Counted from the first letter of the stretch, positions 2,912-63,078 are shown. The stretch: 64,000 nt of DNA from an uncultured Anaerolineae bacterium (GCA_964398185.1 CAYNML010000024.1:6790-70789), one strand, 5' to 3'. The notes: generated by a model from the letters alone, not told the origin. Translations and numbers: made by a program.

Positions 2912-3034
2912 CGTCATTGCGAGCGTTTTTTGCGAAGCAATCTCAATTCCAGTCGACGGGAGATTGCTTCGTCGCACGCCCTATCCGCGCTTTGCGCGGG
3001 GGCGCGCATGGCGACAGCGCTCCTCGCAATGACG
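2912..3034. repeat. Palindromic REP/RPE-like element (CGTCATTGCGAG...GAAGCAATCTC...GAGATTGCTTCG...CTCGCAATGACG)
   Basis: Nested inverted repeats read directly. Three more copies lie inside addA and addB. Confidence 0.85.
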
Positions 3035-4054
3035 CTAAAATCGCGAAATCGCCCCTACCAACGCATCGATCATTTGCGGCGGCGTATCCGGGCTGACGCC
3101 TCCGCCTGCCGATAGGATCAACCCGCGCCCCCCGGTTTTCTCAATACACGATCGGGCCCAGCTGCTCACCTGATCCGGTGTGCCGCGCACCAGCACGTCG
3201 AGCGGCGGCACGTTGCCCATCAAGACGATGCCGGGCATCTGCGCCTGCACTTCGGCGATGTCGGTGGTGTGGCTGAAATTGAAAACGTCAAAGCCGAGAG
3301 ATGCCATCGGCTGCAATAGGTGCGGACAAGGCGTATCGTTGTGATAGACCTTGATCAGGCCGTCGAACGCGGCGAACAGGCGCGTTATCAACGGTCGCGC
3401 ATATTGCTCGAACAACTTCGGCGACAACATCCCCACGATGTCGTCCAGCACGAGTACACCTTCGGGCGCGCGCAGCACGTCGAGTTGGGCGCGCAGCCAG
3501 CGGATGATGGTGGTGGTCAACGTGTCGAGCAAACGCTGCGCGGCTTCCGGTTCTTTCTTCATGGCGATCAGCAAGTCGGTGATGCCCAGCAGCCAGCCTG
3601 CCACGGCGAACGGTCCGCGTGCGGCGACCATTTTGATCGACTCGCCTTCTGGCAGCAAGCGTTTCTCGGCGTCGAGATAGCGCTGCAAGACCAGCGGCAT
3701 CAGGCCGTGCTGCTGCGGATCGGGCGGCTCAATGTCGGCCAGCACTTTCAGCCCGCCGCGCACCGGCTCGATCGACGGCGGTTGATCGCGATGCCACATG
3801 ATGCGCGCGCCAAACGCCGATGGCTCCGCTGCCATGCCGTATTCGATCCAATAACCGGGAATCCAGGCCACTTCCGGAAAGCGCGCGTTCAAGCCCAGAT
3901 AGATACGCAGCCATTCATCTTCGCGCAAAAAGAAATCGAGCGTGTTGATGCCGGCATAGCCGGGCAGCCACGGGCTATCGACGATGAGCGCCACGGGGAT
4001 CCGATCGGCTTGTCCGCCCCGCGCGACGGTGGCAAAGCGTTCCCAGGGATTCAT
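3035..4054 (-). CDS. Uroporphyrinogen decarboxylase / MtaA-CmuA superfamily protein, divergent active site
   Basis: C-terminal LMGNVPPLDVLVRGTPDQV...ILSAGGGVSPDTP and central D(D)IVGMLSPKLFEQY patterns of the URO-D TIM-barrel family. Confidence 0.8.
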   Translation of the reverse strand: MNPWERFATVARGGQADRIPVALIVDSPWLPGYAGINTLDFFLREDEWLRIYLGLNARFPEVAWIPGYWIEYGMAAEPSAFGARIMWHRDQPPSIEPVRGGLKVLADIEPPDPQQHGLMPLVLQRYLDAEKRLLPEGESIKMVAARGPFAVAGWLLGITDLLIAMKKEPEAAQRLLDTLTTTIIRWLRAQLDVLRAPEGVLVLDDIVGMLSPKLFEQYARPLITRLFAAFDGLIKVYHNDTPCPHLLQPMASLGFDVFNFSHTTDIAEVQAQMPGIVLMGNVPPLDVLVRGTPDQVSSWARSCIEKTGGRGLILSAGGGVSPDTPPQMIDALVGAISRF

Positions 4055-6279: not shown

Positions 6280-9200
6280 GTGCTCAATCCTGTTCAGGCA
6301 GATTTGGTTGTGACGGACACTCCCTCTTCTCCGGCGCGGCAGCGCACCACCATTGGGTTCTTAACTGCCAACATCCATCTTGGATCGGGCCGCGCCCTGT
6401 GGCCCGGCGTGGCCGACGCCGCCGAGCAGCACGACTTGAACTACATCTGCTTCCCAGGCGGCGGGCTGCGCGTAAGCGAAGGGTTTGAAGCCCAGCGCAA
6501 CGTCATTTACGATCTGATCGATCCGCAGCGGCTCGACGGGTTGATCACGTGGTCGTCGGCCATCGGCGGGGCGCTCGCTCCCACCGAAGTCGCCGAGTTC
6601 CATCAGCGCTATCAGCCGCTGCCCATGATCAGTCTCGCGCAGATCGTCGAGGGTGTGCCCACTGTGGCGATCGATAGTTACACCGGAATGCGCGAAGCGG
6701 TGGTGCATTTGATCGAAGTGCACGGCTTCCGCAAACTGGCCTTCATGCGCGGCCCGGCCAATCACTTCTTTGCGCAAGAGCGCTATCGCGCTTACACCGA
6801 CGTTCTGAAAGAATATGGCATCCCCTTTGTGCCGGAGCTGGTGACGCAGCCGTTGACGTGGGGCGAGGGCACGGAGGCGGCGCTGCTGTTACTGGACGAA
6901 GCTCACCTGCGGCCCGGTATTGATTTTGAAGCAGTGGTGGCCGTGAGCGATCTGATGGCGTTGAGTGCGATGCGCGTCTTCCAGGCGCGCGGCATTCACA
7001 TCCCGCACGATGTGGCCTTTGTGGGCTTTAACGATTCGCTGGAAGGACGCCTCGTCACGCCGCCCTTGACTTCGGTGGTGATGCCGTTCTACGAACAGAG
7101 CAGGCGCGCCGTGGCCGAACTGCTGATGCGCTTGTCCGGCGCCCCCCTGCCCGATCAGGTCACGCTGCCCTCGCAGCTGATCGTGCGCCAGTCGTGCGGC
7201 TGCCCGTCAGACGCGGTGGTGCAGGCGGCGCTGGGATCCTTCACGCCGAGCGCCGCTAATTTCGCGCAGGCCAGCGCGCCGCTCAAGACGAGATTCATGG
7301 CCGGATTGGCGCAGCCCGATCAGGCGGCGCGCGCCGCGAAACTTTTCGACGCCTTACAGGCCGACTTACTCGCCGGGCCGCCGCAGCGTTTCCTCACGGA
7401 ACTCGCCGCCGTGCTGGAAGAGGCGGCACGGCATGGCACGGATGTGTCAGACTGGCAGGACGCGATCTCACTGCTGCGCCGCTGCGTGCTGCCGGCGTTG
7501 AATCCCGCGCAGCACGCTCGGGCTGAGGACCTCTTCGGGCAGGCGCGTGTTTTGATCGGGGAAGCGGCCCAGCGCACGCAGGCCTATCGCCAATTGCAGG
7601 CGGAGCGACAGGCCGACATGCTGCGCGACATTGGACAGGCGCTGATTACGGCGTTCAACGTCGAGAAGCTTGCCGATGTACTGGCCGAGCGTCTGCCCGC
7701 GTTGGGCATCGCCAGCGGCTATGTGGCGCTGTACGAGAACCCGGCGTTGTCGTTGGAGCGCGCGCGCCTGGTGTTGGCTTACACCGAGCAAGGGCGCGTG
7801 CTGCTGGAGCCGGGCGGGCGATCATTCACGGCGCGCGAATTGGCCCCGGCGGACGTGCTGCCCGCCGAGCGGCGGTACAGCTTCATGCTGGAACCACTGT
7901 ATTTCCGGGAAGAACAGATCGGCTTCGCCCTGTTCGAGATCGGCCCGCGCGACAGCGACATCTACGAAGTGCTGCGCGGCCACATCAGCAGCGCGCTCAA
8001 AGGCGCCTTGCTGTTTCAAGAAGCGCTGCAGGCGCGCCTCGTCGCCGAGAAAGCCGATCAGATCAAAACGCGCCTGTTGACCAATGTCAGCCACGAACTG
8101 CGCACGCCGCTGAACATCATTCTGGGCTATACGCGCAATGCGCTGCTGGCCTCGCAGCCCGACGGCTTGCTGCTGCCCCCCGCCGTGCTGAACGATCTGC
8201 GCCACATTCACAACAGCGCCGAGCACCAGCTGCGCGTCATCAACGACCTGCTCGATCTGTCGCGCGCGGAGATCGACGAGCTCGATCTCTATCTGGAACT
8301 GATCGATCCCCGCCCGCTGCTGGCAGAGGCCTTCCACAGTCTGGCCGATGTGGCCGATCCGGCGCGCGGGATTGCGTGGAAGTTGCAGCTGCCCGATCGG
8401 CTGCCGTGGCTCAACGCCGACGCCGTGCGGCTGCGGCAGACGCTGCTCAACCTGCTGAGCAACGCGCGCAAGTTCACCGCGCGCGGCTCCATCACGCTGG
8501 GCGCCGATGTTGCGCCGCCGTATCTGCACATCTGGGTGGCTGACACCGGCGTCGGCATTGCGAGCGATCAGCTGGACCACATCTTCGAGCCGTTCATCAC
8601 GGCCGAGCACGATCGGCAGGCGGGCGTCCCCCCTCTGGTGGGCGGCATTGGGCTGGGGTTAACCATCACGCGCCATCTGGTGATCCTGCACGGCGGCTCG
8701 ATCAGCGTGGAGAGCGAGCCAGGACGCGGCAGCACGTTCCACGTGTATCTGCCGCTGCCGCACTTGAACGATCAGGCCGCTCCCTCAGCCGCGACAGGGC
8801 ATCCCGTGTTGCTGTTGATCTCGAAAGCCGCGCAGCCCGCACCGGAGATTGTGAAGTTTGCGCGGCAGCAGCACCTGACGATCAAGCGTCTGCACACCGC
8901 CGATGACGTAGAAGCCGTGCTGGCCATCTGCCAGCCGCTGACGGTAGCCTGGGATCTGGTCGACGCCAATCCCAGCGATTGGAACATCGTGCGGCGGCTG
9001 CGCAATCATCCGCGCCTGTCACAGACACCCTTCCTGTTGTATGGCCAGGCGCCGTCGGCGGAAGCCGGCGAAGCGGCGTTGACGATCGGGTTGACGAGTT
9101 TCGTGGGCAAACCGGCGGCCGATCAATCACTGCTCAACGCGCTGCACGCGGCCAGCGCGATCCCGTCGTCTGGCCCGCTGCTGATCGTGGATGATGATCA

Positions 9201-20860: not shown

Positions 20861-23800
20861 ATGAACCGCTCGGCTTTGCGCATCGGCTCGGTGTTGGTGT
20901 TGGCTGTCTCCATGTTGGCCGTGTTGCTCGTGTTCCTGCCGGCGTTGGCCGTGCAGCTCCCGTTGGTCAGTGACGACTTTGAGAGCGGCGCGGGACTGTG
21001 GACCGTGCAGGCCGGCAACTGGTCGATCACAACTACCCCAGAGGGCGCGGCGTACAGCGTCATCTACAGCGGATCGCCCAGCACAGCGCGCGCCATTATC
21101 ACGGAGACGACGGTGCCGGGATCGACGGCGTGGACGGATTATCGGATTGAATCGCGCATCAAAGTCATCACCGGCACCGGCGGCTATTACGCCATGCTCA
21201 TGGCGCGCTACAAGGACGCCCGGAACTACTATTTCATGACCCTGCGCGGCGATAATGGCCGCGTGGAGATCAGGCGTTACTACAACAACTCCTCCAGCGG
21301 ACGCACCCTCACGTCGACCAATGCCAACATCGCAGTGGGAACCTGGTACACCGCGGCCTTTGAGTTGCAGGGCAACACGCTGCGCGCCTACATCGATGGA
21401 AATCTGGTGGCGACGGCCATCGATACCAACACCGTTGAATCTTTCTATACCGGCACGGCGGGACTCGCCACCGCAACCGGCTCGGCGCTGTTCGACGATG
21501 TGCTGATCACCGATCTGCGCGCCTACACCCTCACCGTGAGCAGCGCCGGCAGCGGCGCCGGATCGATCAGCAGCGATCCGGCGGGCATTAGCTGCGGCGC
21601 TACCTGCGCGGCAAGCTTCGATGCCAACAACGTGATCACGCTCACGGCGACACCCGACGCCGGATCGAGCTTTGCCGGTTGGCTGGGCGCATGTGTGGGC
21701 ACAGGTCCGTGTGTCGTCACGCTGGATGCAGCGAAGGCAGTGGTCGGCGTCTTCTCGCTGGACACGCAGCCGATGCTGGTGGTCAACAAGGGCAGCAACG
21801 GGTATGGCCTGGTCACGAGCGACCCGGCGGGCATCGAGTGCGGCATGACGTGCACGGCCAGCTTTGCGCACAGCACGGTAGTTACGCTGACCGCTGCGCC
21901 CGAAAGCGGATCGCTCTTCACCGGGTGGAGCGGTGAAGGCTGCACCGGCACTAGTCAATGCGTTGTTACCATGGATGCCGCGAAGAATGTGACGGCGAGT
22001 TTCACACTGCAAATCTTTGCGTTGAATGTCAGCCAGGCGGGCAACGGCACAGGCACCGTGACCAGCAATCCGGCCGGCATCAACTGCGGCGCGACATGTT
22101 CGGCCAACTACAACGCCGGTACAGTGGTGACGCTCACGGCGTCACCCGACACAGGTTCGACGTTCACGGGGTGGTCGGGGAGTTGCAGTGGATCGGGCAC
22201 GTGCGCTGTCACGATCAATGCGACGACGGGCGTCACCGCGACCTTCGATCTGATCACCTACACCTTGACAGCCCATCGGGCGGGCAACGGCCTAGGATCA
22301 ATCAACAGTACCCCGAGCGGCATCGATAACTGCACAGATGCTACATGCGCGGCGATCTTCAACTACGGCACAGTCGTCACGTTGGCGGCGACGGCGAATA
22401 CCGGCTCGCTCTTCGCCGGCTGGAGCGGCGAAGGGTGCAGCGGCACAGACCCGTGCGCGGTGACCATGACCGCGGCCAGGACGGTGACGGCGACGATGAG
22501 CCTGCTGACCTACACGTTGAGCGTCACCACCGCCGGCCATGGCACAGGCTCGGTCACCAGCGTTCCTGCCGGTATCGACTGCGGCGCGACATGCTCGGCT
22601 ATCATCGATCACGGCACGGTCGTCACGTTGACAGCTGCGGCTGATGGCGGCTCGGCGTTTGCGGGCTGGCAGGGCGCAAATTGCCTGGGGACAGGCGCTT
22701 GTGTCGTAACGCTGGATGCGGCTAAGTCTGTGACCGCGCTCTTCTCGTCGAATAGCAATCCGCTGCTAGTGGTTTATAAAGGCGGCACTGGATTGGGCAC
22801 TATCACCAGCGAACCGGTTGGCATCGATTGCGGCATGACGTGCACGGCCAGCTTCGCGCAGAATACCGTCGTGACGTTGACGGCCACGCCGGATGCCAGT
22901 TCACTCTTCGCGGGCTGGTGTGGCGCGTGCTTAGGCGCCGGGCCGTGCGTCCTCACCATGGACGAGACCCGGAACACGCGCGCGGTCTTTATCGACACGT
23001 CGGCCATTCTGGCCCTGGACGATTTCGAAAGCGGTGCAGGGCAGTGGACGGTTGAATCGGGTGCGTGGACGATCAGCATGGCTGATTCGCAAGTCTACAG
23101 CACCAGCCAGACGGTGGGCGTTAGTTTTGCGCGTTCGGTGATTTCGAATGCGCACACCTCCGGCTGGACCGACTATGTTTTCCGCGCCAGAGTGAAACCG
23201 CTCGTGGGCCAGTATGCCATGTTAATGGTGCGCTATCAGAATGCCAACAACCACTACTTCATGGACTTGCGCACCGACAACGGCAAGATCGAAATCAAGA
23301 AAATGGTGAACGGTTCATCGGGCAGCGCGCTCAAGAGCGTCAGTGCCGGCATCACCGCCGGGACGTGGTACACCGCCGAACTCGAAGTGGTGGGCGCGCA
23401 GCTGCGCGGTTATCTCAACGGCGTGCTGGTGATCACAGCCACCGATCCGCTGGTGAATCCGCCCTTTATGACGGGCGGCGTCGGCGTGGGCACGCTCAAC
23501 AACAGCGCCGAGTTTGACGATGTGCAAGTCGCCTCACTGGCTCCGATCTACACGCTGACCGTCCAGCGCGCCGGCAGCGGTTCCGGCGCAGTGAGCAGCA
23601 CACCGTTCGGGTTGGATTGCGATCTCAACTGCGTCGCGGGCTTCAACGGCGGCGCGGTGGTGGCGCTCGTCGCTGCGCCTGATCCCGGATCGACATTTGC
23701 CGGCTGGCTGGGCGGCGGGTGCAGCGGCACAGGATCGTGCACCATCACGCTGAATGCCAACAAGTCGGTCACCGCCGTGTTTTCGTCGGTCAGTGAGCCG

Positions 23801-25519
23801 ATGCTGGTGGTCAACAAGGATGGCAATGGCGCCGGCGTCGTGACGAGTGTGCCCGCCGGTATCGATTGCGGTGCGATGTGTGCTGCCGGTTTTACGCAAA
23901 ACACGATCGTCACCCTCACCGCAACGGCCACCAACTACTCCACGTTCATGGGCTGGAGCGGTGAAGGTTGCAGCGGCACAGGATCGTGCACAGTGACCAT
24001 GGATGCGGCTAAGTCTGTCACCGCCACCTTTACGTACTTCACCTACCCGCTCACGGTGTCCACTGCCGGCAGTGGACAGGGCACGGTGACCAGCAATCCG
24101 GCAGGGATCCACTGCGGTGTAACGTGCACGGTGAGCTTCGGCGGCGTGGTCACGCTTACCGCTGCGCCTGATCCGGCGACACACTTCGACGGTTGGAGCG
24201 GCGCCTGCAGCGGCGCGGGCCGGTGTGTCATCACAATGGAGGCCGCCAGGAGCGTGACGGCGACCTTCACGCAGTACAACACGTATCTGCCGCTCATTCG
24301 CAACTACATCGCGCCGGTCACGGTCGCGCCGGTGTACGTCGCGCCGAATGGCCTGGATACCAATCCTGGCACCATCACGCAGCCGTTCAAGACATTGAAC
24401 AAAGCGATCGCGCAGACGACGCCCGGCCAAACGATCTTCCTGCGCGGCGGCGTTTACTCGCACACCGACACGATCACGTTGAGTCAGAGCGCCAACAATG
24501 TAAACATGTACAAGATCTGGGCTTATGCCGCTGAAAAGCCGGCGCTGGATTTCGCGGGCGCACCGTTTGGGGCGCGTGGCTTCAACATCACGGGCAACTT
24601 CTGGCATCTGAAAGGTCTGGAGATCCGGTACGCGCCGGACAACGCCATCAAGATCGAGGGCAGCTACAACATCGTCGAAAACTGTGTGCTGCACCACAAT
24701 CAGGACACGGGCCTGCAAATCGGCCTGGCGACAGAATCGGTCAATCCCGGCGGAACGCTGGCCGCTTACAATCAGGTGATCAACTGCGACTCGTATCGCA
24801 ACTATGACGCGGCCACCAACGGTTCCAATGCCGATGGCTTTGCGGCCAAACTGCACCCCGGCCCCGGCAATCTCTTCAAGAGCAGCCGGGCCTGGGAGAA
24901 CGCCGACGACGGTTGGGACTTGTTTCTGACAGACTACCCGGTGATGATCGAAAATTCGTGGACGTGGCACAACGGCGATCCGGCGATCTTCAATCACGTC
25001 GGCCCGTGGGGCGGCAACGGCAACGGCTTCAAGGTGGGCGGCGGCAACAATCACGCGCCGCACATCTTGAAGAACTGTCTCGCCTTCGATCACAAATACG
25101 GTCCCGGTTCAGGCACCAAGGGCTTCGATCAGAATCACAATCTGAGCGGCATTACGATCTACAATTCGGTGGCGTGGGACAATGCGATCAATTATTCGTT
25201 CTACGAGCAGCCCACCGACGGCACGCATCATGTGTTGAAGAACAACGTCGGCTTCGCGTGGACCAGCAGCAACGTCAATCTGTCGGCGGATACCATTCAG
25301 GCGGCCAACAGCTGGACTCTCACGGTCACGACCAACATCAGCGATTTTCTTAGTCTGGATGCGCTGCTGGCCAGCGCACCGCGCCAGCCCGATGGCGCTC
25401 TGCCGCTCAACGACTTTGCGCGGTTGACGAATGACAGCGATCTGATCGACGTGGGGGTGGATGTGGGCCTCCCCTTCCTGGGACTGGCGCCGGACTTGGG
25501 CGCGTTTGAAAAGCGATAA
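20861..25519 (+). CDS. Secreted modular PL9 pectate lyase: signal peptide, 2 ConA-like (DUF1080/CBM66-like) domains, 9 Cys-containing InlB-B-like repeats, C-terminal PL9 beta-helix
   Basis: PL9 (PelL-type) motifs NADGFAAK, GNLF...AWENADDGWDLF, GNGNGFKVGG and terminal APDLGAFE; repeated GTVTSxPAGIxCGxTC...FxGWxGxC modules. Confidence 0.88.
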   Translation: MNRSALRIGSVLVLAVSMLAVLLVFLPALAVQLPLVSDDFESGAGLWTVQAGNWSITTTPEGAAYSVIYSGSPSTARAIITETTVPGSTAWTDYRIESRIKVITGTGGYYAMLMARYKDARNYYFMTLRGDNGRVEIRRYYNNSSSGRTLTSTNANIAVGTWYTAAFELQGNTLRAYIDGNLVATAIDTNTVESFYTGTAGLATATGSALFDDVLITDLRAYTLTVSSAGSGAGSISSDPAGISCGATCAASFDANNVITLTATPDAGSSFAGWLGACVGTGPCVVTLDAAKAVVGVFSLDTQPMLVVNKGSNGYGLVTSDPAGIECGMTCTASFAHSTVVTLTAAPESGSLFTGWSGEGCTGTSQCVVTMDAAKNVTASFTLQIFALNVSQAGNGTGTVTSNPAGINCGATCSANYNAGTVVTLTASPDTGSTFTGWSGSCSGSGTCAVTINATTGVTATFDLITYTLTAHRAGNGLGSINSTPSGIDNCTDATCAAIFNYGTVVTLAATANTGSLFAGWSGEGCSGTDPCAVTMTAARTVTATMSLLTYTLSVTTAGHGTGSVTSVPAGIDCGATCSAIIDHGTVVTLTAAADGGSAFAGWQGANCLGTGACVVTLDAAKSVTALFSSNSNPLLVVYKGGTGLGTITSEPVGIDCGMTCTASFAQNTVVTLTATPDASSLFAGWCGACLGAGPCVLTMDETRNTRAVFIDTSAILALDDFESGAGQWTVESGAWTISMADSQVYSTSQTVGVSFARSVISNAHTSGWTDYVFRARVKPLVGQYAMLMVRYQNANNHYFMDLRTDNGKIEIKKMVNGSSGSALKSVSAGITAGTWYTAELEVVGAQLRGYLNGVLVITATDPLVNPPFMTGGVGVGTLNNSAEFDDVQVASLAPIYTLTVQRAGSGSGAVSSTPFGLDCDLNCVAGFNGGAVVALVAAPDPGSTFAGWLGGGCSGTGSCTITLNANKSVTAVFSSVSEPMLVVNKDGNGAGVVTSVPAGIDCGAMCAAGFTQNTIVTLTATATNYSTFMGWSGEGCSGTGSCTVTMDAAKSVTATFTYFTYPLTVSTAGSGQGTVTSNPAGIHCGVTCTVSFGGVVTLTAAPDPATHFDGWSGACSGAGRCVITMEAARSVTATFTQYNTYLPLIRNYIAPVTVAPVYVAPNGLDTNPGTITQPFKTLNKAIAQTTPGQTIFLRGGVYSHTDTITLSQSANNVNMYKIWAYAAEKPALDFAGAPFGARGFNITGNFWHLKGLEIRYAPDNAIKIEGSYNIVENCVLHHNQDTGLQIGLATESVNPGGTLAAYNQVINCDSYRNYDAATNGSNADGFAAKLHPGPGNLFKSSRAWENADDGWDLFLTDYPVMIENSWTWHNGDPAIFNHVGPWGGNGNGFKVGGGNNHAPHILKNCLAFDHKYGPGSGTKGFDQNHNLSGITIYNSVAWDNAINYSFYEQPTDGTHHVLKNNVGFAWTSSNVNLSADTIQAANSWTLTVTTNISDFLSLDALLASAPRQPDGALPLNDFARLTNDSDLIDVGVDVGLPFLGLAPDLGAFEKR

Positions 25520-54155: not shown

Positions 54156-57100
54156 TTACACGTCTTCTACCTGCACTTCGTTTTTCACGCGCAGAAACAC
54201 CAATTGCCCACGCGGGCGTTGGCCGATCTGCGGCGCGATCGCTTCGATGTAGCGCTGCACTTGCTCAGCATATTTCTCGTGCTCGATTGTAGCACGCATC
54301 TCTTCGATCGATCTTACTTCGTCCGTCTTGAAATCGACGATCGTCCAGCCATCGCCCGATCGATAGAGCAGATCGATCACGCCCGTATCGCCGGGCAGAG
54401 CATAGGGAACTTTGTGCAGCCGATCGGCCTTCTCAACTTCTTCGTACAACGGGTGCGCCTGAAACCGTCGCAGCATCCGGCGCACTTCGTTAATCGTCGC
54501 CTGAATCTCGGCGTGATCGGTCAAGCCCGCTTCCAAAGCGAAGGGCAGCAGAAAGGCGTCGAAGTTGTCGGAGTCGGGAAAGCGCCAGCGGCGCAGCGCT
54601 TCGTGTGTCAACCGCCCGACGACCCACGCCGGCCCGACGGGCCGTTGGGCCTTTGGCACAACGCGCCAAACCTTCGATTGCGGATTTTGGATTTTGGATT
54701 GCGGATCAAGGTGGAGCGCTGCAACGACCAGTTCAGGCGGTTGCAGGATGCTGGCCGATCCGCTTACCGTCTCGGCATTAGTTCGAATCGCTCCAACTTC
54801 CTCTGGCGGATACAACACACACCCAAGCGGTTGACTGAGTTCCACGCGACGCGGCGCGGTGAGCTCGCCATCAATCGTGATGGCATCCAGCCCGACGACT
54901 TCACCCAATCGTCTTAACCAACCACTCAACGTCAGCATATGCTTGGAACTGATCTTGGCGTGTCCGCTGACGATCAATTTTTCTTTGGCGCGCGTGGCGG
55001 CGACGTAGAGCAGGCGTTTATCTTCGGCGTCGTCTTTGGCTTGCTCGTTCAGCCGGGCCAGGCGATAGGCCACCGGATGTGCGCCGTCCGCGTCGGTCAG
55101 ATCGATCTGCAAGCCGAGGTGATCGTCGAGCAGCACTTTGCTGGCACGATTGGGCATTTCGTGCGCGGCGTCGGCGATGACGACGACGGGAAATTCCAGA
55201 CCTTTCGCTTTGTGGACCGTCATCAACTGCACCGCGCCCTCGGCGGCGACGGGCGCTTCGCCTTCACGCACGCCGGTATCTTCCAGCGTCTGCACGTATT
55301 CCAGAAATTCGCCGAGGCTGATCAAGCGGCTGGCGTGCGCGTCGACCAACAGCTTATCGACGTTGCGGCGCAGGCGATGGCCCTGCGGCACAGCGCTCAA
55401 CAGCGTGCGATAGTGCGTCGCGTCGAGGAAGCGCTTCAGCACCTCGGCCACCGACACGCGCCCGGCGAGATCGTGCAGTTCGGCAATGAGGTGATAGGCG
55501 TCACTGCGAGCGCTTCCCAGCGAAGCAGTCTCAGTGTGCCCTGATGAGATTGCTTCGCGCTCCGCGCTCGCAATGACGGACAGATTTTCCCACAATGAAC
55601 GCGGCTGATCATCGTTGGCGAAACGCAACCGATACAGATCAGCATCACTCAGGCCAATGGCTGGCGAGCGCAATAAACCCGCGAGGGCCAGATCGTCGGT
55701 GGGATCGTGGATGGCCGCCAACGCATTGAGCACATCACGGATCTCCGGTCGATCGTAGAAGCCGCGTCCGGCGATGGTCACGAAGGGAATGCCCGCCCGT
55801 TCGAGGGCGTCTTCGTACACGCTAAAGCCGCTGCTGGCGCGGAACAGCAGCGCCATGTCACTCCACGCAAATTCCTCGGCGCGGTGCAAAGCGTGCAAGC
55901 GCTGGGCCAGAGCGGTCGCGGTGGCTTCACGTCCAGTGGCGGCATCCTCGCCCACGCCGAGATGAAATTCCACAAAGGGTGCGCACACGGCTTGTTTTTC
56001 AGGCTGTTTGCGCTGGGCGCGCAATTCGGCAAAGGGCACTTCGTAGGGCTGCGTCAGATCAGCGGCTTCGCCCAGCACGGGACGCAGCAGATCGTTGAGA
56101 TTCTGCACCAGCGGTTGATGCGCGCGGAAAGTGAGATCGAGATCGACGGTAAGGCCATTGGCGGCTTGAATATCCGCCTGCACTTGCCGGAAAACGCTCA
56201 CGTCCGCGCCGCGAAACTTATAGATGCTCTGTTTGGCGTCGCCGACGATGAAGAGTTCGCCCGCCGAGGATGCCGTCATTGCGAGGAGCGCTTTTTGCGA
56301 CAAAGCAATCTCCTGCGGTTGGAACTGGGATTGCTTCGCAGACAGCGCTCGCAATGACGGAGCGGGCGCGAAACCCGTCAACGCATACACGATGTCGCGC
56401 TGGCGGGCATTGGTGTCTTGAAATTCGTCGACCAGCACCGCCTGCACATCATGTTGCCAACGTTCGCGTACCGCGGGCTGTGTCGTCAGCAGCTGGGCGG
56501 CGCGGCCTTCCAGATCGTCAAAGTCGAGCGCGTGCTGTGCGTCCTTCAATTGATCGTATTCCTGCAAGACGCGAGCGTGCAGTTGTTGCAGCGCGGGCAG
56601 AGCATCGGCCAGTTGTCGATCGAGCGCAACATTCAACGAGCCTTCCGCGCCGATCAACGGCTTGAGTTCCTCGTCGTAGTGATCGCGCAAGACGCGCATG
56701 GCTTCACGTGCGGTTTCCAGATCGGCGGCGTCCCAGTTGGCTTTTTGTCCCTGTGTGGAAGTTGCCTTGCGAAGTTGCGACAGGCCGTTGAAGAGCGTGG
56801 TCCAATCGGATGCAGTACGAGCCGCCGAGACTTCGCGCCAGCGATCGAGCACGGCGCGGCGCGCGGTCTCCAGTTTGTCGTCGGCGCTGCGCGATCGAAG
56901 TTCGGTCAGCGTGTTTAAAGCGTCGCGCCATTGATCGGTCAGGTGTTCGTCCAGCCAGCGAGTCAGTGCGTCTGCGAGGTGTGTTGAGGTTGACCACACC
57001 GCCGCCACATCGAGCCGCTTTTCGATCAGCGTGCCGAGAATGTCACGCAGGCCGCCTTCGGTGAAGAGGCCGATGAGGGGCGCGAGGTCCGATCGGGTGG

Positions 57101-57590
57101 CCGCCCACGCCAGCGCGGCTTCGATCGCCTGCGCCTGCCACGCGGCCGCCTGGCCTTCTTCCAACACAGCGAAGTTGGGATCGAGTCCGGCTTCGGCGGG
57201 ATGCGTCCTGAGGACCTCGGCGCACAGGCTGTGGATGGTGCTGATGCGCGCCGCGTCGAGCTCGGTGAAGGCGCGCTGCCATATTTGCTCGGCGACCGCG
57301 TCTTCGCGGTCGGCCCCACCCGCGAGGACGCGGGCAGGGAGCATCAAGCGGCGTTGAATCTCGATACGGATGCGCGTCCGCATTTCACGCGCAGCCTTGT
57401 CGGTGAACGTGATGGCGACCAGCGAGCGCAGCGGATGGCCCTGTTCCAGCAGATGCAGGTAGCGCCCGACGAGCACGCGCGTCTTGCCGGAGCCGGCGCC
57501 CGCCGTCACCGCAATGGCGCGGCTGCGGCGCGTGGCGGCCTGCTTTTGATCGGGTGTGAATGTGAATTGAGTGAGGATGCTGCTATGCAT
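54156..57590 (-). CDS. addA: AddA/UvrD-like SF1 helicase with C-terminal RecB-family nuclease
   Basis: AGAGSGKT, AITFTDKAAREM, STIHSLC, VLVDEFQDTN, IVGDAKQSIYKFRGAD, MTVHKAKGLEFP, RLLYVAATRA and GVIDLL...VDFKT. Confidence 0.85.
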   Translation of the reverse strand: MHSSILTQFTFTPDQKQAATRRSRAIAVTAGAGSGKTRVLVGRYLHLLEQGHPLRSLVAITFTDKAAREMRTRIRIEIQRRLMLPARVLAGGADREDAVAEQIWQRAFTELDAARISTIHSLCAEVLRTHPAEAGLDPNFAVLEEGQAAAWQAQAIEAALAWAATRSDLAPLIGLFTEGGLRDILGTLIEKRLDVAAVWSTSTHLADALTRWLDEHLTDQWRDALNTLTELRSRSADDKLETARRAVLDRWREVSAARTASDWTTLFNGLSQLRKATSTQGQKANWDAADLETAREAMRVLRDHYDEELKPLIGAEGSLNVALDRQLADALPALQQLHARVLQEYDQLKDAQHALDFDDLEGRAAQLLTTQPAVRERWQHDVQAVLVDEFQDTNARQRDIVYALTGFAPAPSLRALSAKQSQFQPQEIALSQKALLAMTASSAGELFIVGDAKQSIYKFRGADVSVFRQVQADIQAANGLTVDLDLTFRAHQPLVQNLNDLLRPVLGEAADLTQPYEVPFAELRAQRKQPEKQAVCAPFVEFHLGVGEDAATGREATATALAQRLHALHRAEEFAWSDMALLFRASSGFSVYEDALERAGIPFVTIAGRGFYDRPEIRDVLNALAAIHDPTDDLALAGLLRSPAIGLSDADLYRLRFANDDQPRSLWENLSVIASAEREAISSGHTETASLGSARSDAYHLIAELHDLAGRVSVAEVLKRFLDATHYRTLLSAVPQGHRLRRNVDKLLVDAHASRLISLGEFLEYVQTLEDTGVREGEAPVAAEGAVQLMTVHKAKGLEFPVVVIADAAHEMPNRASKVLLDDHLGLQIDLTDADGAHPVAYRLARLNEQAKDDAEDKRLLYVAATRAKEKLIVSGHAKISSKHMLTLSGWLRRLGEVVGLDAITIDGELTAPRRVELSQPLGCVLYPPEEVGAIRTNAETVSGSASILQPPELVVAALHLDPQSKIQNPQSKVWRVVPKAQRPVGPAWVVGRLTHEALRRWRFPDSDNFDAFLLPFALEAGLTDHAEIQATINEVRRMLRRFQAHPLYEEVEKADRLHKVPYALPGDTGVIDLLYRSGDGWTIVDFKTDEVRSIEEMRATIEHEKYAEQVQRYIEAIAPQIGQRPRGQLVFLRVKNEVQVEDV
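54675..54707. repeat. In-frame heptamer repeat (GATTTTG/GATTGCG units) encoding PQSKIQNPQSK in addA
   Basis: CGATTGCGGATTTTGGATTTTGGATTGCGGATC. Confidence 0.75.
55499..55578. repeat. Palindromic element copy, in frame within addA
   Basis: CGTCACTGCGAG...GAAGCAGTCTC...GAGATTGCTTCG...CTCGCAATGACG; encodes VIASAEREAISSGHTETASLGSARSDA. Confidence 0.85.
56274..56359. repeat. Palindromic element copy, in frame within addA
   Basis: CGTCATTGCGAG...AAGCAATCTCC...GGGATTGCTTCG...CTCGCAATGACG; encodes SLRALSAKQSQFQPQEIALSQKALLAMT. Confidence 0.85.
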
Positions 57591-57658
57591 GCGTGGCCGC
57601 GTCTATCCTTGTAGAATCGGTGTATAATTTTCATAGACCGATAGTAAGGCGGACAATC

Positions 57659-57991
57659 ATGAGCGACTTAACGACTCGCACTACGGCAAAACGACTCAAT
57701 ACCCTGGCGCAGCTCTACGAGCGTGGTCAGACCAGTCCATTGTTGGATCGGGCGCTGGCTAAAGCGCTGACGTATGAGGCTGCCGTGTCACGCCAGCAGC
57801 TGGAGCAATTGCAGGCCGATCTGGCCGAACTGGAACAACGCTATGGACTATCGTCGGCCGAGTTTTACCAGCAATATCAAGCCGGCCAGACAGATGATCA
57901 ACTTGATTATACGGAATGGGCCGCGCTGCTCCAGATGGCGAATAACTTGCAAGAACGGCTGCGGTTGCTGGCCGACGCCGAACGTCCATGA
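57659..57991 (+). CDS. Probable antitoxin of a type II TA pair
   Basis: LEQRYGLSSAEFYQQYQAGQTDDQLDYTEWA pattern; ATGA overlap with the downstream toxin; TATAAT at 57623. Confidence 0.7.
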   Translation: MSDLTTRTTAKRLNTLAQLYERGQTSPLLDRALAKALTYEAAVSRQQLEQLQADLAELEQRYGLSSAEFYQQYQAGQTDDQLDYTEWAALLQMANNLQERLRLLADAERP

Positions 57992-58371
57992 CTGCCGCCG
58001 ATTATTTGGAGTCGATCAAAGCCCGTCTGTTGAGCGACCCCCTCATCGCTGCGTTCCAGATCGTGCGTGAACGCAGCACTTCCTTTGACGGTTATCTGCG
58101 CGCCAGAGTGACGCTGTTGGACGACAGTCACCTTGAATTCGCCGAATACTTCACCGTTGCCACAGATGATCAGATTGCGGTGGTGACTTACAATTACCAC
58201 TGGGCTGCGCCGCATGGCGGCCTGATTCAGCGTTGGGATAATACTCCCCATTATCCCGGTCTGCCCAACTTTCCCGATCACACCCATCTGGCCGACACGG
58301 CTGAACCACTCCCGGCTGAACCACAGAATATCTTCGCTGTATTGGATGAAATTACCAAACGTTTGTCATAG
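57988..58371 (+). CDS. DUF6516/TumE-like toxin of a type II TA pair
   Basis: YNYHW...IQRWDNTPHYPGLPNFPDHTH motif. Confidence 0.7.
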   Translation: MTAADYLESIKARLLSDPLIAAFQIVRERSTSFDGYLRARVTLLDDSHLEFAEYFTVATDDQIAVVTYNYHWAAPHGGLIQRWDNTPHYPGLPNFPDHTHLADTAEPLPAEPQNIFAVLDEITKRLS

Positions 58372-58374
58372 CCG

Positions 58375-61300
58375 CTAGAAGGCTTGTGGCGTATATCTCC
58401 AGCAAAACGCGACGGCGGGACAATAGCTTGGACACCCGCCATCGGGTGGCATGGGGTGGAAATCGCCCGAGCGAATGTGCCGCACGTGATCGACGACGTG
58501 CTGCTTGACTTGATCAAAAGCGGCCCCTATGCCGTCGGGATATTTTTCCAACTTGAAGCTGCTGGCCTCGCCGCGCAAGATGTGCCAGTAGAAGCCCGAG
58601 GCAACTTTGCCAAGTCCCAGCGCCTCTTGCGCGGCCAGCGCGTACAACGGCAGTTGCAAGCGTTTGCCTTTCTCCAGATCCTTCGCGCTGATGGCTGAGC
58701 CGCTGGCCTTGTAATCGATCACGCGCAGACGACCCTGCTGATCCACATCCAGCCGATCGATGTAGCCGTGCAAGCGAATCTCTGCGCCATCGCCGGCGCG
58801 CACGATCAACGACGGCTGCCCCATGCCAAACCTCTGCTCGAAGTAACGCGGCGTAAATTCGGCTGAAACTTCGGCCAGTGCTTCAATCGTGAGGCGTAAC
58901 TTCTCTTCCAATTCACGCTGCTGCGCGTCCCACAATGCGCCCGGTCGGAAGCCGTAATCGATCGGAGCGGTAGCGAACACCGCGCGCGCGATAGCAGGCA
59001 GGGCGCTCAACGGATCGTCGTGTTGATACACGTCTTCCAGAATCTTGTGCAGCATCGAACCGAGGATGCGCGCATCGTAGCCTGCTTCCGGCGGCGTGCG
59101 CGGCTCCAGTTGCAGCGCGTGCGCGATGTAAAATGCAAACGGGCACGTGCCGTACATTTCCAAGCGGCTCGCGCTCCAGCCGTGCGCGGCGGAGTAGCGT
59201 TGCTGCAAGACGTCAGCCAAGTGCGGCAAGACGCCTTCATGCTCGCCGGTCGCTTCGTCGGCCAGTCGAGCCTGCAAGACTTCGAGGCGGTGCTGTAGGT
59301 GCTGATCAAATTGGCGCGCGGCCTGCACCCACTCGATCGGCGAAGCGGCTTCCTCAGGCGACAGATGATCTTCGGGGCGCACTTTGCGCACGATCGGGCC
59401 GCTCGTGCCGAGCGGTTGATCGAACAACTTCAGCACCTGCGACCAATACGGCGATGGTTCCCACGGCTGACCGTCGGGTGCGAGGTACGGTCGGGTGAGC
59501 AGCAACCGATCGGACGCGCGGGTGATTGCTTGATAGAAGAATGTGATCTCGTCGCCGCGCAGCTTGGGTTCGATCGCCAGGCCTCGATCGCGCAACACTG
59601 CCCGATCGGTTTCACGCAGCAGCACGGCTTCGCGCTCGGCCTGCGGGAATTCGCCTTCCGCTAAACCCAACAGCGCGACGGCGCGAAACGACAGGCCGCG
59701 CGCATCGAGCGCCGAGGCGGTGAACACCCCGGCCCCCACCCTTGATCCCTCCCCCGTTTCACCGGGGAGGGGATCATACGACATCGCTTCAAGCGCGCCA
59801 CGCAGTTCATTCACGAACGCGCGATAATCGATCGGTTGTGCTTCGCCGATCGTGGCGTCACTCAACACCAGGCCGCGCAGGGCATCTTTGCAAGCCCGCA
59901 GCGCCGCCACATCGCGCGCGGCGGTGATCGGGTTTTGCAGGACACGGGCCGCAACCCCGATGCCGGTCGTCTCGACTTCGCCAATCAAATCCTCGACGAA
60001 CGCGGCGTAGTCGCGGATGGTGGCCTGCGGCTCAGGCATGATGGCCGCCGTGAAGGCTTCGAACTTTGCCTGCAATTGCCGCACTTCTTCAGGCGCAAGC
60101 CATTCGGCGGAGGTATCCTCGTCGTCGATGAGCGCACCTTCGGCGCGCGGTTGGCCCAATGCCTCAAACGCTGCTTGCCATTGCTCCAACCCGCCGATCA
60201 CGCGCGCGGCGCGGGTGAGCGTGTCCAACTGCGCCGCATCGTGATCCGTAATGCCCTGCGCCGACCAGTCGAAGTACGGACTGCGCCACGCTTCCAACAC
60301 CTGACGGCGCGGCCAGTCGAGCACGGGCAGCGACAACAGCGACAACAGCGCGGCGATGGCGGGATTGTCGATCAGCGGTGCGCCGCCGATCAGTCGCAGC
60401 GGCACGCCAAACTCGGCGGCGACTTCGAGCAGGAACGGGCGGTAGGCTTCAAGGTTGCGCGCGAGGATGGCAACGTCGTCGATCGACATGCCGTCGATCA
60501 CGATCCGCTGTTTGATCCAGCGCAAGGCCGCGCGAGATTCTTCGGAACGGTTCTGGGCCTCGATGAATTCAACGGATTGCTGATTGCTGATTGCTGATTG
60601 CTGATTGCGAAGCGTTCCTGCGCGACTCTCAAACAGCGCACTTTCGAGCGCAGCTAATTCCGTGGAGCGCGTCGTTGCGAGGAGCGTTGTGTGCGACGAA
60701 GCAATCTCACCATCGGGCAGAAAGAGATTGCTTCGCAAACTGCGCTCGCAATGACGGGCGGTGGGCAGCGCTTCCGGTGTGATGTGCAGGTGATCTATCA
60801 ACGCTCGCCGCGCGCGATTGAAACGGCGATGCGCGAGACGCGAACGGGACAGATCGCCGGTGAGGGTGATGATCGTTTCCTGCGCGCGCTGCGCGAGAAT
60901 CGTCAGCACGCCCAACTGCGTGGGGTTGAATTCGTCGAAGCCGGTGACGATGAGCAGGCGCGTGTCAGTGCCGAGGTCAGGTTTGTTTTCCAGCGCAATG
61001 GCCGCCAGCCAGCCTTGCCCTTCGGCGTCGGCCCAGTCGTTGCGCTGGAGCCAGTCTTGATAGGCGGTGTAGATCGCAGCGAGTTCTTCCAGTCGCAGGC
61101 CAAGTCCGAACACCGCGCCGTGAAATGCAATCGGATAGACACGGGCCCGTTTGAGTTCTTCGATGGTATCGCGCAGCAAGGCGATGAAGCCCGGTTTGGC
61201 GCGCAGGGCGGCATAATACGGCAATTGCCCCGTGTCGCATAGTTGATCGATCACGCGGCGCAGCAGGCGAATCTGCAACGGATCGGTCAAGCGGGCGCGG

Positions 61301-61536
61301 CGCTGATCGACGCGGGTGAGCAGCTCGGCGTAGAGCATGTGGAAGGTGAGCAACTCCACACCGATCGCGCCGCCGGACCGCGCGAGGCGGCGGCGAAATT
61401 CGGCCAGCTGCAATTGATTGGGCAGGATGACCGTGACGGGCGCGAAGGGATCTGTGGCCTTGACTTCGCGCAGGCGATCGATCGCGTAGTGCGTTTTGCC
61501 GGAGGCGGCAGGGGCGAGGAGCAGGCGCACGGACAT
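58375..61536 (-). CDS. addB: AddB-like subunit: helicase-like domain + PD-(D/E)xK nuclease with 4Fe-4S staple
   Basis: N-terminal APAASGKT; SASRLEMYGTCPF; GYIDRLD...VIDYK; terminal CPSYCPAVAFC (four Cys in total). Confidence 0.82.
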   Translation of the reverse strand: MSVRLLLAPAASGKTHYAIDRLREVKATDPFAPVTVILPNQLQLAEFRRRLARSGGAIGVELLTFHMLYAELLTRVDQRRARLTDPLQIRLLRRVIDQLCDTGQLPYYAALRAKPGFIALLRDTIEELKRARVYPIAFHGAVFGLGLRLEELAAIYTAYQDWLQRNDWADAEGQGWLAAIALENKPDLGTDTRLLIVTGFDEFNPTQLGVLTILAQRAQETIITLTGDLSRSRLAHRRFNRARRALIDHLHITPEALPTARHCERSLRSNLFLPDGEIASSHTTLLATTRSTELAALESALFESRAGTLRNQQSAISNQQSVEFIEAQNRSEESRAALRWIKQRIVIDGMSIDDVAILARNLEAYRPFLLEVAAEFGVPLRLIGGAPLIDNPAIAALLSLLSLPVLDWPRRQVLEAWRSPYFDWSAQGITDHDAAQLDTLTRAARVIGGLEQWQAAFEALGQPRAEGALIDDEDTSAEWLAPEEVRQLQAKFEAFTAAIMPEPQATIRDYAAFVEDLIGEVETTGIGVAARVLQNPITAARDVAALRACKDALRGLVLSDATIGEAQPIDYRAFVNELRGALEAMSYDPLPGETGEGSRVGAGVFTASALDARGLSFRAVALLGLAEGEFPQAEREAVLLRETDRAVLRDRGLAIEPKLRGDEITFFYQAITRASDRLLLTRPYLAPDGQPWEPSPYWSQVLKLFDQPLGTSGPIVRKVRPEDHLSPEEAASPIEWVQAARQFDQHLQHRLEVLQARLADEATGEHEGVLPHLADVLQQRYSAAHGWSASRLEMYGTCPFAFYIAHALQLEPRTPPEAGYDARILGSMLHKILEDVYQHDDPLSALPAIARAVFATAPIDYGFRPGALWDAQQRELEEKLRLTIEALAEVSAEFTPRYFEQRFGMGQPSLIVRAGDGAEIRLHGYIDRLDVDQQGRLRVIDYKASGSAISAKDLEKGKRLQLPLYALAAQEALGLGKVASGFYWHILRGEASSFKLEKYPDGIGAAFDQVKQHVVDHVRHIRSGDFHPMPPDGGCPSYCPAVAFCWRYTPQAF
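60575..60609. repeat. In-frame heptamer tandem repeat (GATTGCT)x5 encoding NQQSAISNQQS in addB
   Basis: Read directly; the last unit is GATTGCG. Confidence 0.85.
60670..60756. repeat. Palindromic element copy, in frame within addB
   Basis: CGTCGTTGCGAG...GAAGCAATCTC...GAGATTGCTTCG...CTCGCAATGACG; encodes RHCERSLRSNLFLPDGEIASSHTTLLATT. Confidence 0.85.
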
Positions 61537-61775: not shown

Positions 61776-63062
61776 TTAGACAAGCTTGACTCGATCGACG
61801 TCAATTTCAAAACATTTCATTTGCTCTGCCAGCCACCTGGCCCAGGCCCAAATCGTCTGTCGTCGCCGTTGAATAGTAGAACTGGTGTAATGCTGACGTT
61901 CACCGTCACGTGTCGCCGATGCGATGACTTCATCGACATCCTGTGCTGTAAAGTAACGCTTGTGGCGGGCACGTCGGACAAGCTGCCGAAACACCCATGA
62001 ATTAACGATCAACTGAGCCATTAAGCGCTGTTGGGCGGTGGGCGGCGTTTGAACGAAAATGAAGCCGCGCTCCGTGAGATCAAACACGCCGCGTCGTCGC
62101 GTGATCAAGCCAAGATATTCAGCGGCTTCGCCGTAGTAGTTGCTTTGACGACGATCGAAGATGAAATAATCGCTGATTGTTTCGACGGTGTTTTGTCCTG
62201 AATTGATCACCGTCAGGAGTTCAAAGATCTTGTTCAAATCATCGGCTTGAGGCACAACTTGTGAGGGCGTCTCGAGGCGAGTGTCAAGCAGGTCATCAAC
62301 TCGCAAAGCGACGGGGCGTGTAAGAGCATAGACACAGCAACGTATTTGCTGCACCGAATTGAAGACGGCCTCTTCAGTAAATTCAAATTCACGGAATGTG
62401 TATGTCGCCTGACTGAGGTCATACTCGAACAAGAGAGGGCGCACACGCTTTTGTGGCACGAGGAGCCGGAAATGTCGATACGGGTAATAGAGTTGACGGA
62501 TGTTGAAGTTAGTGCGCGCCCCAATTTTGGCTTCGACCAGGATAATGTTGTGTTCACCTTCGTAACCCGCATCGACTTCAATTTGGACACCATCGACTGT
62601 AATGGCCTCATCGTTTCCGGTTATTTGGAACTCAAATGCGCGTGAACGCTCACGACCACGAATCGTTAAATAGAGTTTCTCATCTTGAACAAAGTGCCCA
62701 AGCATGCCCGTGTTGAAAGCATTATCGAGGTACTCTGCTTCGCCAGTGCCACGCCCAGCCGTCAACAAGGGAAATTCCGTCTGCGCCTGGAATTTGGCCT
62801 GTGTTCCACAGGCACTTACATTTGCAAAGATGTTGCCACGAAATAACAAGTAGCTGCCGTTTGTGATTGCCAATAACGCATAACCATTACGGCGGAAGAT
62901 TTTGGGCAACTGCTGGTAGTCATCAATTTTTGCCAGTAAACGCGGCTCACGTTCTGACACCGTTTTGAGATGATCCGCTTTGATCTCAAAGCGACGACCA
63001 TCCAGCTGCAAGCCTGTTACCGTCAGATATTTCTCCCAGGCTGCCTCGTTGGCAGTAGGCAT
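61776..63062 (-). CDS. Probable type II restriction endonuclease (PD-(D/E)xK core + C-terminal winged helix; DUF6997/6996/7226-like)
   Basis: REPRLLAKID N-terminal motif; QIEVDAGYEG...VEAK; RQLYYPYR; PQADD...FDRRQSNYYGEAAEYLGL; adjacent to the MTase. Confidence 0.72.
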   Translation of the reverse strand: MPTANEAAWEKYLTVTGLQLDGRRFEIKADHLKTVSEREPRLLAKIDDYQQLPKIFRRNGYALLAITNGSYLLFRGNIFANVSACGTQAKFQAQTEFPLLTAGRGTGEAEYLDNAFNTGMLGHFVQDEKLYLTIRGRERSRAFEFQITGNDEAITVDGVQIEVDAGYEGEHNIILVEAKIGARTNFNIRQLYYPYRHFRLLVPQKRVRPLLFEYDLSQATYTFREFEFTEEAVFNSVQQIRCCVYALTRPVALRVDDLLDTRLETPSQVVPQADDLNKIFELLTVINSGQNTVETISDYFIFDRRQSNYYGEAAEYLGLITRRRGVFDLTERGFIFVQTPPTAQQRLMAQLIVNSWVFRQLVRRARHKRYFTAQDVDEVIASATRDGERQHYTSSTIQRRRQTIWAWARWLAEQMKCFEIDVDRVKLV

Positions 63063-63078
63063 ACCGTTCTCCTCGGTA

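Follow-up and report, generated by a model that had tools for sequence, protein, structure and literature searches.

An uncultured Anaerolineae bacterium (Chloroflexota) is the source of the DNA analysed in this study, a stretch of 64,000 nucleotides (GCA_964398185.1, CAYNML010000024.1:6790-70789; hereafter the window), which carries the genes for the two subunits of the AddAB helicase/nuclease, addA and addB, and four copies of a palindrome of 80-123 bp (Table 1). One copy is intergenic, two are located in addA and one in addB, at the positions where an original prediction for this DNA had placed a mobile palindromic element inserted in frame into both genes. The two genes were identified by homology of their products to solved structures, namely PcrA (1pjr, E 1e-46), Bacillus subtilis AddA (3u44_A, 2e-44) and AddB (3u44_B, 9e-20), and the catalytic motifs are kept, namely Walker A, DEFQDTN, VGDAKQSIY and the nuclease/Fe-S cysteines in both proteins.

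Table 1. Palindrome copies and the genes that contain them, in window coordinates
Feature	Position	Strand	Length	Description	Basis
addA, ATP-dependent helicase/nuclease subunit A	54156..57590	-	1144 aa	Open throughout, motifs intact	
addB, helicase/deoxyribonuclease subunit B	58375..61536	-	1053 aa	Open throughout	
Intergenic copy of dimer	2912..3034		123 bp	30-nt-type arm, loop and 36-type arm with nested GC-rich hairpin	Fold, comparison of copies
addA site 2 dimer	55499..55578	-	80 bp	AddA residues 672-697, VIASAEREAISSGHTETASLGSARSD; helicase domain 2B	
addA site 1 dimer	56274..56359	-	86 bp	AddA residues 412-439, SLRALSAKQSQFQPQEIALSQKALLAMT; linker between motif II (DEFQDTN) and motif III (VGDAKQSIY)	
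addB dimer	60670..60756	-	87 bp	AddB residues 261-289, RHCERSLRSNLFLPDGEIASSHTTLLATT; left terminus CGTCGTTGCGAG	

The four copies are bounded by outer inverted ends (CGTCATTGCGAG / CTCGCAATGACG) and contain inner inverted motifs (GAAGCAATCTC / GAGATTGCTTC); the mean column identity among them is 63%, with the 12-nt ends and the inner motifs invariant. The copy at addA site 2 has the variant termini CGTCACTGCGAG (plus strand), and the inner motif of its opposite end is altered to GAGACTGC. When the window was searched for the inner motif GAAGCAATCTC with at most one mismatch, nine matches were found against 0.89 expected, a number reached in none of 100 shuffles, and eight of the nine are the eight arms of the four copies. 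The 12-mer terminus with at most two mismatches was not significant by itself (14 matches in the window against 11.8 expected); at 0-1 mismatch, the eight matches at the element sites are precisely the eight element ends, and one more match with one mismatch, at 8553, lies outside any element. The top three inverted repeats of the whole window (I1, I2 and I5) are pairs of palindrome copies. The intergenic copy is located between two open reading frames (ORFs) of the minus strand, 2464-2895 and 3035-4054, where it adjoins the stop codon of the latter, and its greater length is due to an extra small palindrome within the right arm. The concentration of copies in a single enzyme complex, emphasized by the original prediction, holds within the window, where three of the four copies fall within the 6.6 kb of addAB and none was found in the three other giant ORFs (7533, 1552 and 1202 aa; ~31 kb together); the loci of relatives were picked through addA and are therefore unusable for testing this clustering.

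Two hairpin units in inverted orientation, each of the form CGTC-ATTGC-(variable small hairpin)-GCAAT-CTC, make up every copy, with the tags outermost. On the tagged strand, an arm is composed of the tag CGTC, with which all eight window arms begin, a 5-bp stem (ATTGC/GCAAT) that encloses an internal loop and a small, variable hairpin at the apex, and a 3-nt tail, CTC; on the opposite strand, it reads GATTGC-TTC-(small variable hairpin)-CTC-GCAATGAC(G). ATTGC...GCAAT closes every arm, in the window as well as in a set of 217 arms, and arms across phyla end in GCAATGAC, with the next base mostly G. Beyond the conserved stem, the internal loop (TTC/CTC) is followed by an apical stem of 2-9 bp, and the arms are 24-63 nt long. 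Among the 217 arms, the hairpin base does not vary, and the varying apical stem is self-complementary in many of them (for example, GCCGCC/GGCGGC, GGCAC/GTGCC and GACC/GGTC). The tail is CTC or CCC here and CCAG in proteobacterial copies.

Two types of arm, 3+3 nt apart, were recognized, with lengths of 30 and 36 nt in the window and of 26 and 32 nt in Proteobacteria; pairs of 26- and 32-nt arms are frequent in other phyla. In the window, three of the four dimers join a short (30-nt) and a long (36-type) arm, and the site-2 copy consists of two short arms (30 + 31 nt). Such a dimer can form either a single long hairpin or two small hairpins; in the folding analysis, every window copy formed the long hairpin, at -26 to -42 kcal/mol and with z of -3.9 to -7.3 (-42.1 kcal/mol, z -5.4, for the intergenic copy). 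Ribozyme, attC, CRISPR-like and Chi-site readings of the palindrome were considered from the sequence and rejected on account of no conserved catalytic core, wrong spacing and no matching motifs. No known RNA family was detected with Rfam, either in the whole window at the gathering threshold or at E ≤10 in 55400-56500, the output being only meaningless miRNA/snoRNA noise, and when the literature was searched in full text for strings of the DNA or the peptides (among them GTCATTGCGAG and LRFARNDG), unrelated primer matches were all that appeared.

Other repeats were also observed. A perfect 7-nt tandem in addB (60575-60608, GATTGCT repeated 4.9 times, encoding NQQSAISNQQS) has as its unit the 7-mer that starts a palindrome arm, and a weaker 7-nt array is present in addA (54676-54706); a unit of 7 nt, not being a multiple of three, could switch the frame by slippage within a coding region. 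In a Chloroflexus sp. metagenome-assembled genome (L093:1300-1960), right arms of this family are arranged in tandem, up to four in a row with a spacing of ~46-50 bp, beside full dimers; therefore, single arms can amplify head-to-tail.

Conceptual translation confirmed that the three genic copies are in frame, that they are read in three different frames and that both ORFs stay open. The copies are read as VIASAEREAIS..ETASLGSARSD, SLRALSAKQS..EIALSQKALLAMT and RHCERSLRSNL..EIASSHTTLLATT, and the insert peptides predicted from the open frames are VIASAEREAISSGHTETASLGSAR, SLRALSAKQSQFQPQEIALSQK and HCERSLRSNLFLPDGEIASSHTTLLATTR. The three sense frames of the left end give RHCE.., VIAS.. and SLRA.., and those of the right end ..LAMT, ..ARND and ..SQ followed by a stop, the last being the sole stop-containing frame (..TCG CAA TGA CG). 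The length and frame combinations of the genic copies avoid this TGA frame, and addB has AACGACG in place of AATGACG. Avoidance of the stop frame is the signature expected of a filter on translated insertions, if the open frames are indeed translated as predicted.

In order to compare the sites among relatives, AddA homologues of 64-83% identity were collected from a large protein collection (P-numbered below), and six contigs (L081-L086), which also carry addB, were fetched; the AddA proteins of the nearest species representatives in GTDB are only ~50% identical, too distant to judge insertion at site 2. At each of the three sites, close relatives from Anaerolineae metagenomes (AddA/AddB 64-88% identical) were found that have neither the palindrome nor the peptide. 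The original prediction had pointed to orthologues carrying the same peptide segments without the DNA palindrome as the finding that would speak against insertion; the palindrome-less orthologues also lack the peptide, which favours insertion and indicates that the segments were acquired and are not ancestral protein.

The alleles found at the three sites are diverse. At addA site 1, which in the window reads ..GFAPAP-SLRALSAKQSQFQPQEIALSQKALLAMT-ASSAGELFIVGD, the linker comprises 38 aa, versus 8-12 aa and no palindrome in P0012, P0014, P0022 and P0030-36; other relatives have the same element, half an element, nested copies (P0008, P0009 and P0025) or other simple repeats at this site. A sibling unit, HPERSAAKSKD, is present there in P0003, P0007 and P0010 and is repeated five times in tandem in P0016; at this site in L083:10001-13330, L085:10001-13303 and L086:5913-9248, a sibling CGTC-like unit has ATCCT..AGGAT instead of ATTGC..GCAAT and encodes HPERSAAKSKD / HPSTSLRFAQD. 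At addA site 2, the element is shared by the window and P0001, P0002, P0003, P0006 and P0026; most relatives have KTSEVFxNLxGL (12 aa), which a small double hairpin (AGACTTCCGAAGTCT..AGACTTCGGAAGTCT) encodes, and more distant relatives have an older type containing ..TRARA.. (..ALVERGAREDVTRARA..). At the addB site, the element is found in the window and in L083, and the other five of the six relatives, including the closest one, L081 (AddB 88% identical), have a sequence of the NVEVGFRNSEL type. Alleles with and without the element are thus documented for each of the three sites, and two sites also have nested or arm-reversed ones.

The site-2 and addB copies must be old because they are common to relatives, which contradicts the earlier proposal that the insertions were made in this lineage. 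The net gain is +24 to +30 aa at addA site 1, +18 aa at addA site 2 and +26 aa in addB, and the replaced sequence amounts to 33 nt at addA site 2 (the TSEV palindrome) and 27 nt in addB (the NVEVGFRNS-type repeat). Consequently, of the three in-frame insertions of ~27-30 aa that had been predicted, the acquisition in frame was upheld, and the size and cleanness were not, with gains of 18-30 aa and loss of prior sequence at two sites. There is evidence that the three AddAB loops are hot spots, at which palindromic repeats of several families have repeatedly landed or been turned over.

Other inserted or repeat-derived segments were noted in the same proteins. PLSR/PLPGETGEGxGVG segments occur at two AddB positions in different relatives, and residues ~590-605 of the window AddB are also repeat-derived. 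The AddA relative P0019 (1451 aa) has its motif III interrupted (GDAKQ|..|SIYRFRG) by an intein-like insertion (CLPPGT...VHN, Pfam PF14890), which is located only some residues downstream of site 1 and adds another kind of selfish insert to this region.

The original prediction also assigned the inserts to surface loops, which was supported at one site of addA and not at the other. Site 1 corresponds to a linker of ~3 residues in PcrA, leading from the helix after motif II to the strand of motif III, and AddA residues 411-441 have predicted local distance difference test (pLDDT) values <50 in an AlphaFold2 model built from a 44-sequence alignment (mean pLDDT 73, predicted template modelling score (pTM) 0.49). 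Site 2 follows a GIG-type motif in domain 2B and was modelled as a helix-loop-helix with pLDDT of 59-81. The addB site is located within a variable stretch of the N-terminal helicase-like region.

Comparison at the DNA level showed that the arms are more conserved than their surroundings. The site-2 element of the window and that of L086 are 97.4% identical, with 26 of 26 third codon positions identical, versus 82.6% identity (68.8% at third positions) in the remainder of addA; between the window and L081, the arms are nearly identical and the 13-nt loop is unrelated. What is maintained is therefore the DNA of the arms and not the encoded peptide, whether through selection acting on the hairpin or through homogenisation by other copies. 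Compared with L081 and L084, the window has the 30- and 36-nt arms of addA site 1 in the opposite order, and the same holds for the addB site in comparison with L083, where the flanks are identical. The reversed-order arms align better in reverse complement (72-74 versus 68-70 matches), and the addB loop aligns better in direct orientation; inversion, independent insertion or conversion of arms could each account for the reversal.

The distribution of the element beyond the window was determined by an exact-match scan for one arm, with 21 specified bases and ~5 chance matches expected at equal base frequencies. The exact arm was found at no fewer than 120 loci in species-representative genomes belonging to more than 10 phyla; among the matches listed are Alpha-, Gamma- and Deltaproteobacteria (many of them Bradyrhizobium), Sporomusa, Helicobacter rodentium, Chloroflexota, Bacteroidota, Cyanobacteria, Patescibacteria, Planctomycetota, Zixibacteria and Omnitrophota. 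Exact arms are also present in at least 120 predicted viral contigs of IMG/VR (L207-L286 among them), some with multiple copies (six in L221), and these contigs are a possible vehicle between phyla, or else the matches may reflect host flanks of proviruses, which some of the contigs may include. The family is mainly extragenic, because 9-13% of the arms, versus 56-66% of random positions, fall in long open frames. The clearly genic arms found elsewhere include those in genes for an AddB-like PD-(D/E)XK protein, UvrA and GMP synthase; in L084, the gene two positions upstream of addB encodes a RecQ-ComF-like protein whose linker contains one arm in frame.

These results make it likely that the four copies are inverted dimers of repetitive extragenic palindrome (REP)-like units with a CGTC tag, which were copied into the genome and retained as translated, near-neutral passengers in linkers of AddA and AddB. 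Units with this tag, families CGTC-1 to CGTC-4, were described by Di Nocera, De Gregorio and Rocco (2013, BMC Genomics 14:522; PMC3733652). Copying would probably have proceeded by a trans-acting mechanism based on single-stranded DNA. Copies that arrived in tolerant and already variable linkers would have been retained only where the net change in length was divisible by three and the stop frame was avoided, and would then be translated as segments of 26-29 aa, as the open frames suggest. At the protein level, the inserts are most likely near-neutral passengers, since the proteins keep all their catalytic motifs, and what is maintained would be the DNA palindrome, in its arms, rather than the peptide.

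Several observations weigh against this interpretation. No Y1/HUH or other transposase and no integrase was detected by Pfam in the 10 small ORFs of the window, which instead gave a TumE toxin, a Dam methylase and DUF6997/DUF7226. Similarly, no recurrent transposase was found beside the element when 2929 ORFs from 120 element-bearing loci were clustered all-against-all, the recurrent neighbour families being housekeeping only (ABC-F, EF-G, ValRS, histidine kinase and Pth). The RAYT/IS200-like mobiliser sought by the original prediction was thus not found, there being no Y1_Tnp domain in the former set and no recurring transposase in the latter, and of the term mobile the dispersed nature of the repeat is established, movement being what we infer from it. 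No target-site duplication was found at the copies or in comparison with the relatives' sites, and the four copies have unrelated flanks (GCT/CTA, AGG/GAC, TGC/GAG and GCG/GGC). With no clean empty site and two of three sites replaced, a simple cut-and-paste or copy-and-paste insertion is not demonstrated. The high conservation of the arms may come from gene conversion or recombination and not from selection. The geometry also departs from that of the published CGTC units, whose stem is 8-9 bp and whose loop is 4-5 nt (PMC3733652), in that the arm here is ATTGC-GAG-(variable hairpin)-GAA-GCAAT, with a 5-bp basal stem and an internal loop. The peptides of the window family are absent from the published intragenic peptides (VIPAKAGI..IPASAGMT, SFPRKRES..DSRLRGND and RHSREGGNP..), and the comparison with CGTC-1 to CGTC-4 is one by description. 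Finally, the AlphaFold model is mediocre overall (pTM 0.49), and the translation of the inserts is deduced from the open frames.

Some of the same observations would also be explained if no transposition had occurred and the palindrome had been spread or homogenised via recombination, gene conversion or template switching, one palindrome overwriting another. Replacement rather than interruption, with the loss of 27 nt in addB and of the 33-nt TSEV palindrome at addA site 2, the lack of target-site duplications, arms that are nearly identical across lineages while the loops differ, the reversed arm order between identical flanks in the window and L083, and the sibling ATCCT..AGGAT units at the same site in L083, L085 and L086 all fit this explanation. 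However, replacement could equally reflect insertion followed by deletion over ~15-25% sequence divergence, and the occurrence of exact arms across more than 10 phyla, and also in viral contigs, demands copying or transfer beyond local conversion. Such processes are compatible with transposition; as an account without transposition, this one is considered rather unlikely.

A broader proposal, which is more speculative and on present evidence doubtful, is that the ATTGCGAG/GAAGCAAT family and its siblings form an ancient, horizontally travelling CGTC group with structure-targeted copying, which hits, overwrites and re-orients hairpin linkers in helicase/nuclease genes. If this is true, the repeated colonisation of three AddAB loops would be the footprint of the insertion mechanism (for example, insertion at stalled or processed hairpins) and not of permissive selection alone, and the filled, empty, nested and reversed alleles of Anaerolineae would provide a natural system to identify a mechanism that has been open since 2013.

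It appears improbable that the inserts are selected functional modules, acting either as hairpins of addAB mRNA or DNA or as extra helices in domains 1A and 2B that tune the expression or activity of AddAB; modulation of recombination or mutation rate by such repeats was a speculation of Di Nocera et al. (PMC3733652). Such a role would account for the repeated hits in repair genes. The preference for addAB in the window over ~31 kb of other giant ORFs, the further copies in the RecQ-ComF-like gene of L084 and in the AddB-like gene and uvrA of other phyla, a repair-gene bias reported in the literature as well (PMC3733652), conservation of the arms beyond the synonymous expectation, and the ordered helix-loop-helix modelled for the site-2 insert are in its favour. 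Nevertheless, in close relatives the insert sites are empty or occupied by unrelated, nested, half or tandem repeats, which looks like turnover in permissive linkers and not like conservation of a function; the loop peptide is unconstrained, the occurrence of both arm orders at one site argues against a strand-specific RNA role, and the count is biased by loci picked through addA. That the segments are ancestral AddA/AddB loops or assembly artefacts with a coincidental DNA likeness, for which nothing speaks except that the regions are variable in all homologues, can be set aside with near certainty, given relatives without the peptides, copies with 63% mean column identity and nine inner motifs against 0.89 expected, and the same copies in independent metagenome assemblies (L081, L083, L084 and L086).

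The surroundings of the copies were examined as well. The original prediction took the copies on both sides of an att site to mean that an island has resided here long enough to be colonised, for which no support was obtained; no tRNA gene was found in a scan of the window, hence no tRNA-linked att site, nor an integrase or transposase in the ten small ORFs, and the addAB copies are silent on the residence time of an island because they are older than the divergence of relatives with different flanking genes. The spacer between addB and addA (57593-58371, plus strand) contains a toxin-antitoxin-like pair, two ORFs of 132 and 127 aa that overlap over 4 bp, the 127-aa ORF having a TumE toxin domain (E 2e-18). 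This slot is occupied in relatives by another two-gene pair on the addBA strand (L081-L083) or by a TumE pair (L084), or is empty (L085 and L086), so that it looks like a hot spot for small cassettes. Directly upstream of addB (61776-63963, minus strand), genes for a DUF6996/DUF6997/DUF7226 protein and a D12-class Dam methyltransferase, which may be a restriction or defence cassette, stand in place of the SNF2 helicase gene of relatives. Farther away, a single ORF of 7533 aa (29056-51657, plus strand) with dozens of 63/126-nt periodic repeats ending in ..TACGAC (YD/RHS-type) probably encodes a giant polymorphic toxin or adhesin-like protein, and the 1552-aa ORF (20861-25519, plus strand), with internal repeats of ~250 bp (families D10-D16), probably encodes a repetitive surface protein.

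The AddAB copies provide a well-documented case of a palindrome becoming protein in a core repair enzyme outside Proteobacteria and Rickettsia. The type of event, in-frame palindromic repeats in repair genes, is already described in an earlier study (PMC3733652); new are the Chloroflexota host, the pan-bacterial sequence family including viral contigs, the turnover sites in AddAB and the conservation of the arms at the DNA level. Two leads on how CGTC units propagate are the maintenance of the arms as DNA while the encoded loop drifts, and the coincidence of insertion sites with other hairpin-forming repeats. For annotation, segments of the VIAS.., SLRA.. and RHCE.. type in helicases and nucleases should be regarded as repeat-derived and not as domain features.

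The element was compared with four known systems. Palindromic elements of Rickettsia, reportedly described by Ogata et al. in 2000, are said to lie in frame in the ORFs of functional genes, to which they add peptide segments. The window element is similar in being in frame in intact genes and absent from orthologues; it differs in that Rickettsia palindromic element 1 (RPE-1) is ~100-150 bp and restricted to Rickettsia, whereas the element here has another sequence, belongs to a free-living Chloroflexi lineage and occurs in many phyla.

In the REPIN-RAYT system, two inverted REP units form one long hairpin that is thought to be mobile via single-stranded DNA, and the units have a GTAG tag and a REP-flanked RAYT (Y1/HUH) gene (Bertels and Rainey 2011, PMC3116915). 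The inverted two-unit long hairpin is shared by the window element, but its tag is CGTC and no RAYT-type gene is present among the 10 small window ORFs or beside the 120 other copies. [quoted passage not shown] The window element is likewise a small palindromic repeat inside ORFs, and it lacks the target-site duplications, the terminal inverted repeats derived from an insertion sequence and a visible parent insertion sequence.

The closest resemblance is to the CGTC-tagged REPs (PMC3733652). Their unit has an unpaired CGTC (or TGTC/CCTC) tag, a stem opening with A/T pairs and a 3-nt tail (consensus CCA); the units are mostly inverted dimers, often heterodimers, with the tags outermost and no associated transposase, are mainly intergenic near the 3' ends of genes and were found in five phyla, Chloroflexi not being among them (PMC3733652). 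Intragenic dimers add 20-30 aa and are over-represented in replication and repair genes, such as those for UvrA/B/C/D, RecB/C/D, UvrD/Rep helicases, PolA and DnaE2, and AddB of Coxiella contains a dimer of the sister GTAG-type REPs (PMC3733652). The window element is alike in tag, A/T start of the stem, inverted heterodimers, genic minority, repair genes and lack of a flanking transposase; it has a 3-nt tail, whose bases are CTC here (CCAG in Proteobacteria) as against CCA. The clustering in a repair enzyme matches the published bias. The peptides of the three frames run in parallel, VIPAKAGI/SFPRKRES/RHSREGGNP...AGMT/RGND in the published set and VIAS../SLRA../RHCE.....LAMT/ARND here, and back-translation of this pattern implies the same CGTCATT head. 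Taken together, the window element is best placed among the CGTC-tagged REPs, probably as an additional family. In its contribution to protein sequence it behaves like the palindromic elements of Rickettsia, and the analogy with Rickettsia drawn by the original prediction proved better than had been realized, as RPE-4 is a CGTC-4 unit and RPE-6 a CGTC-1 unit (PMC3733652), which places both in the same CGTC-tagged superfamily.

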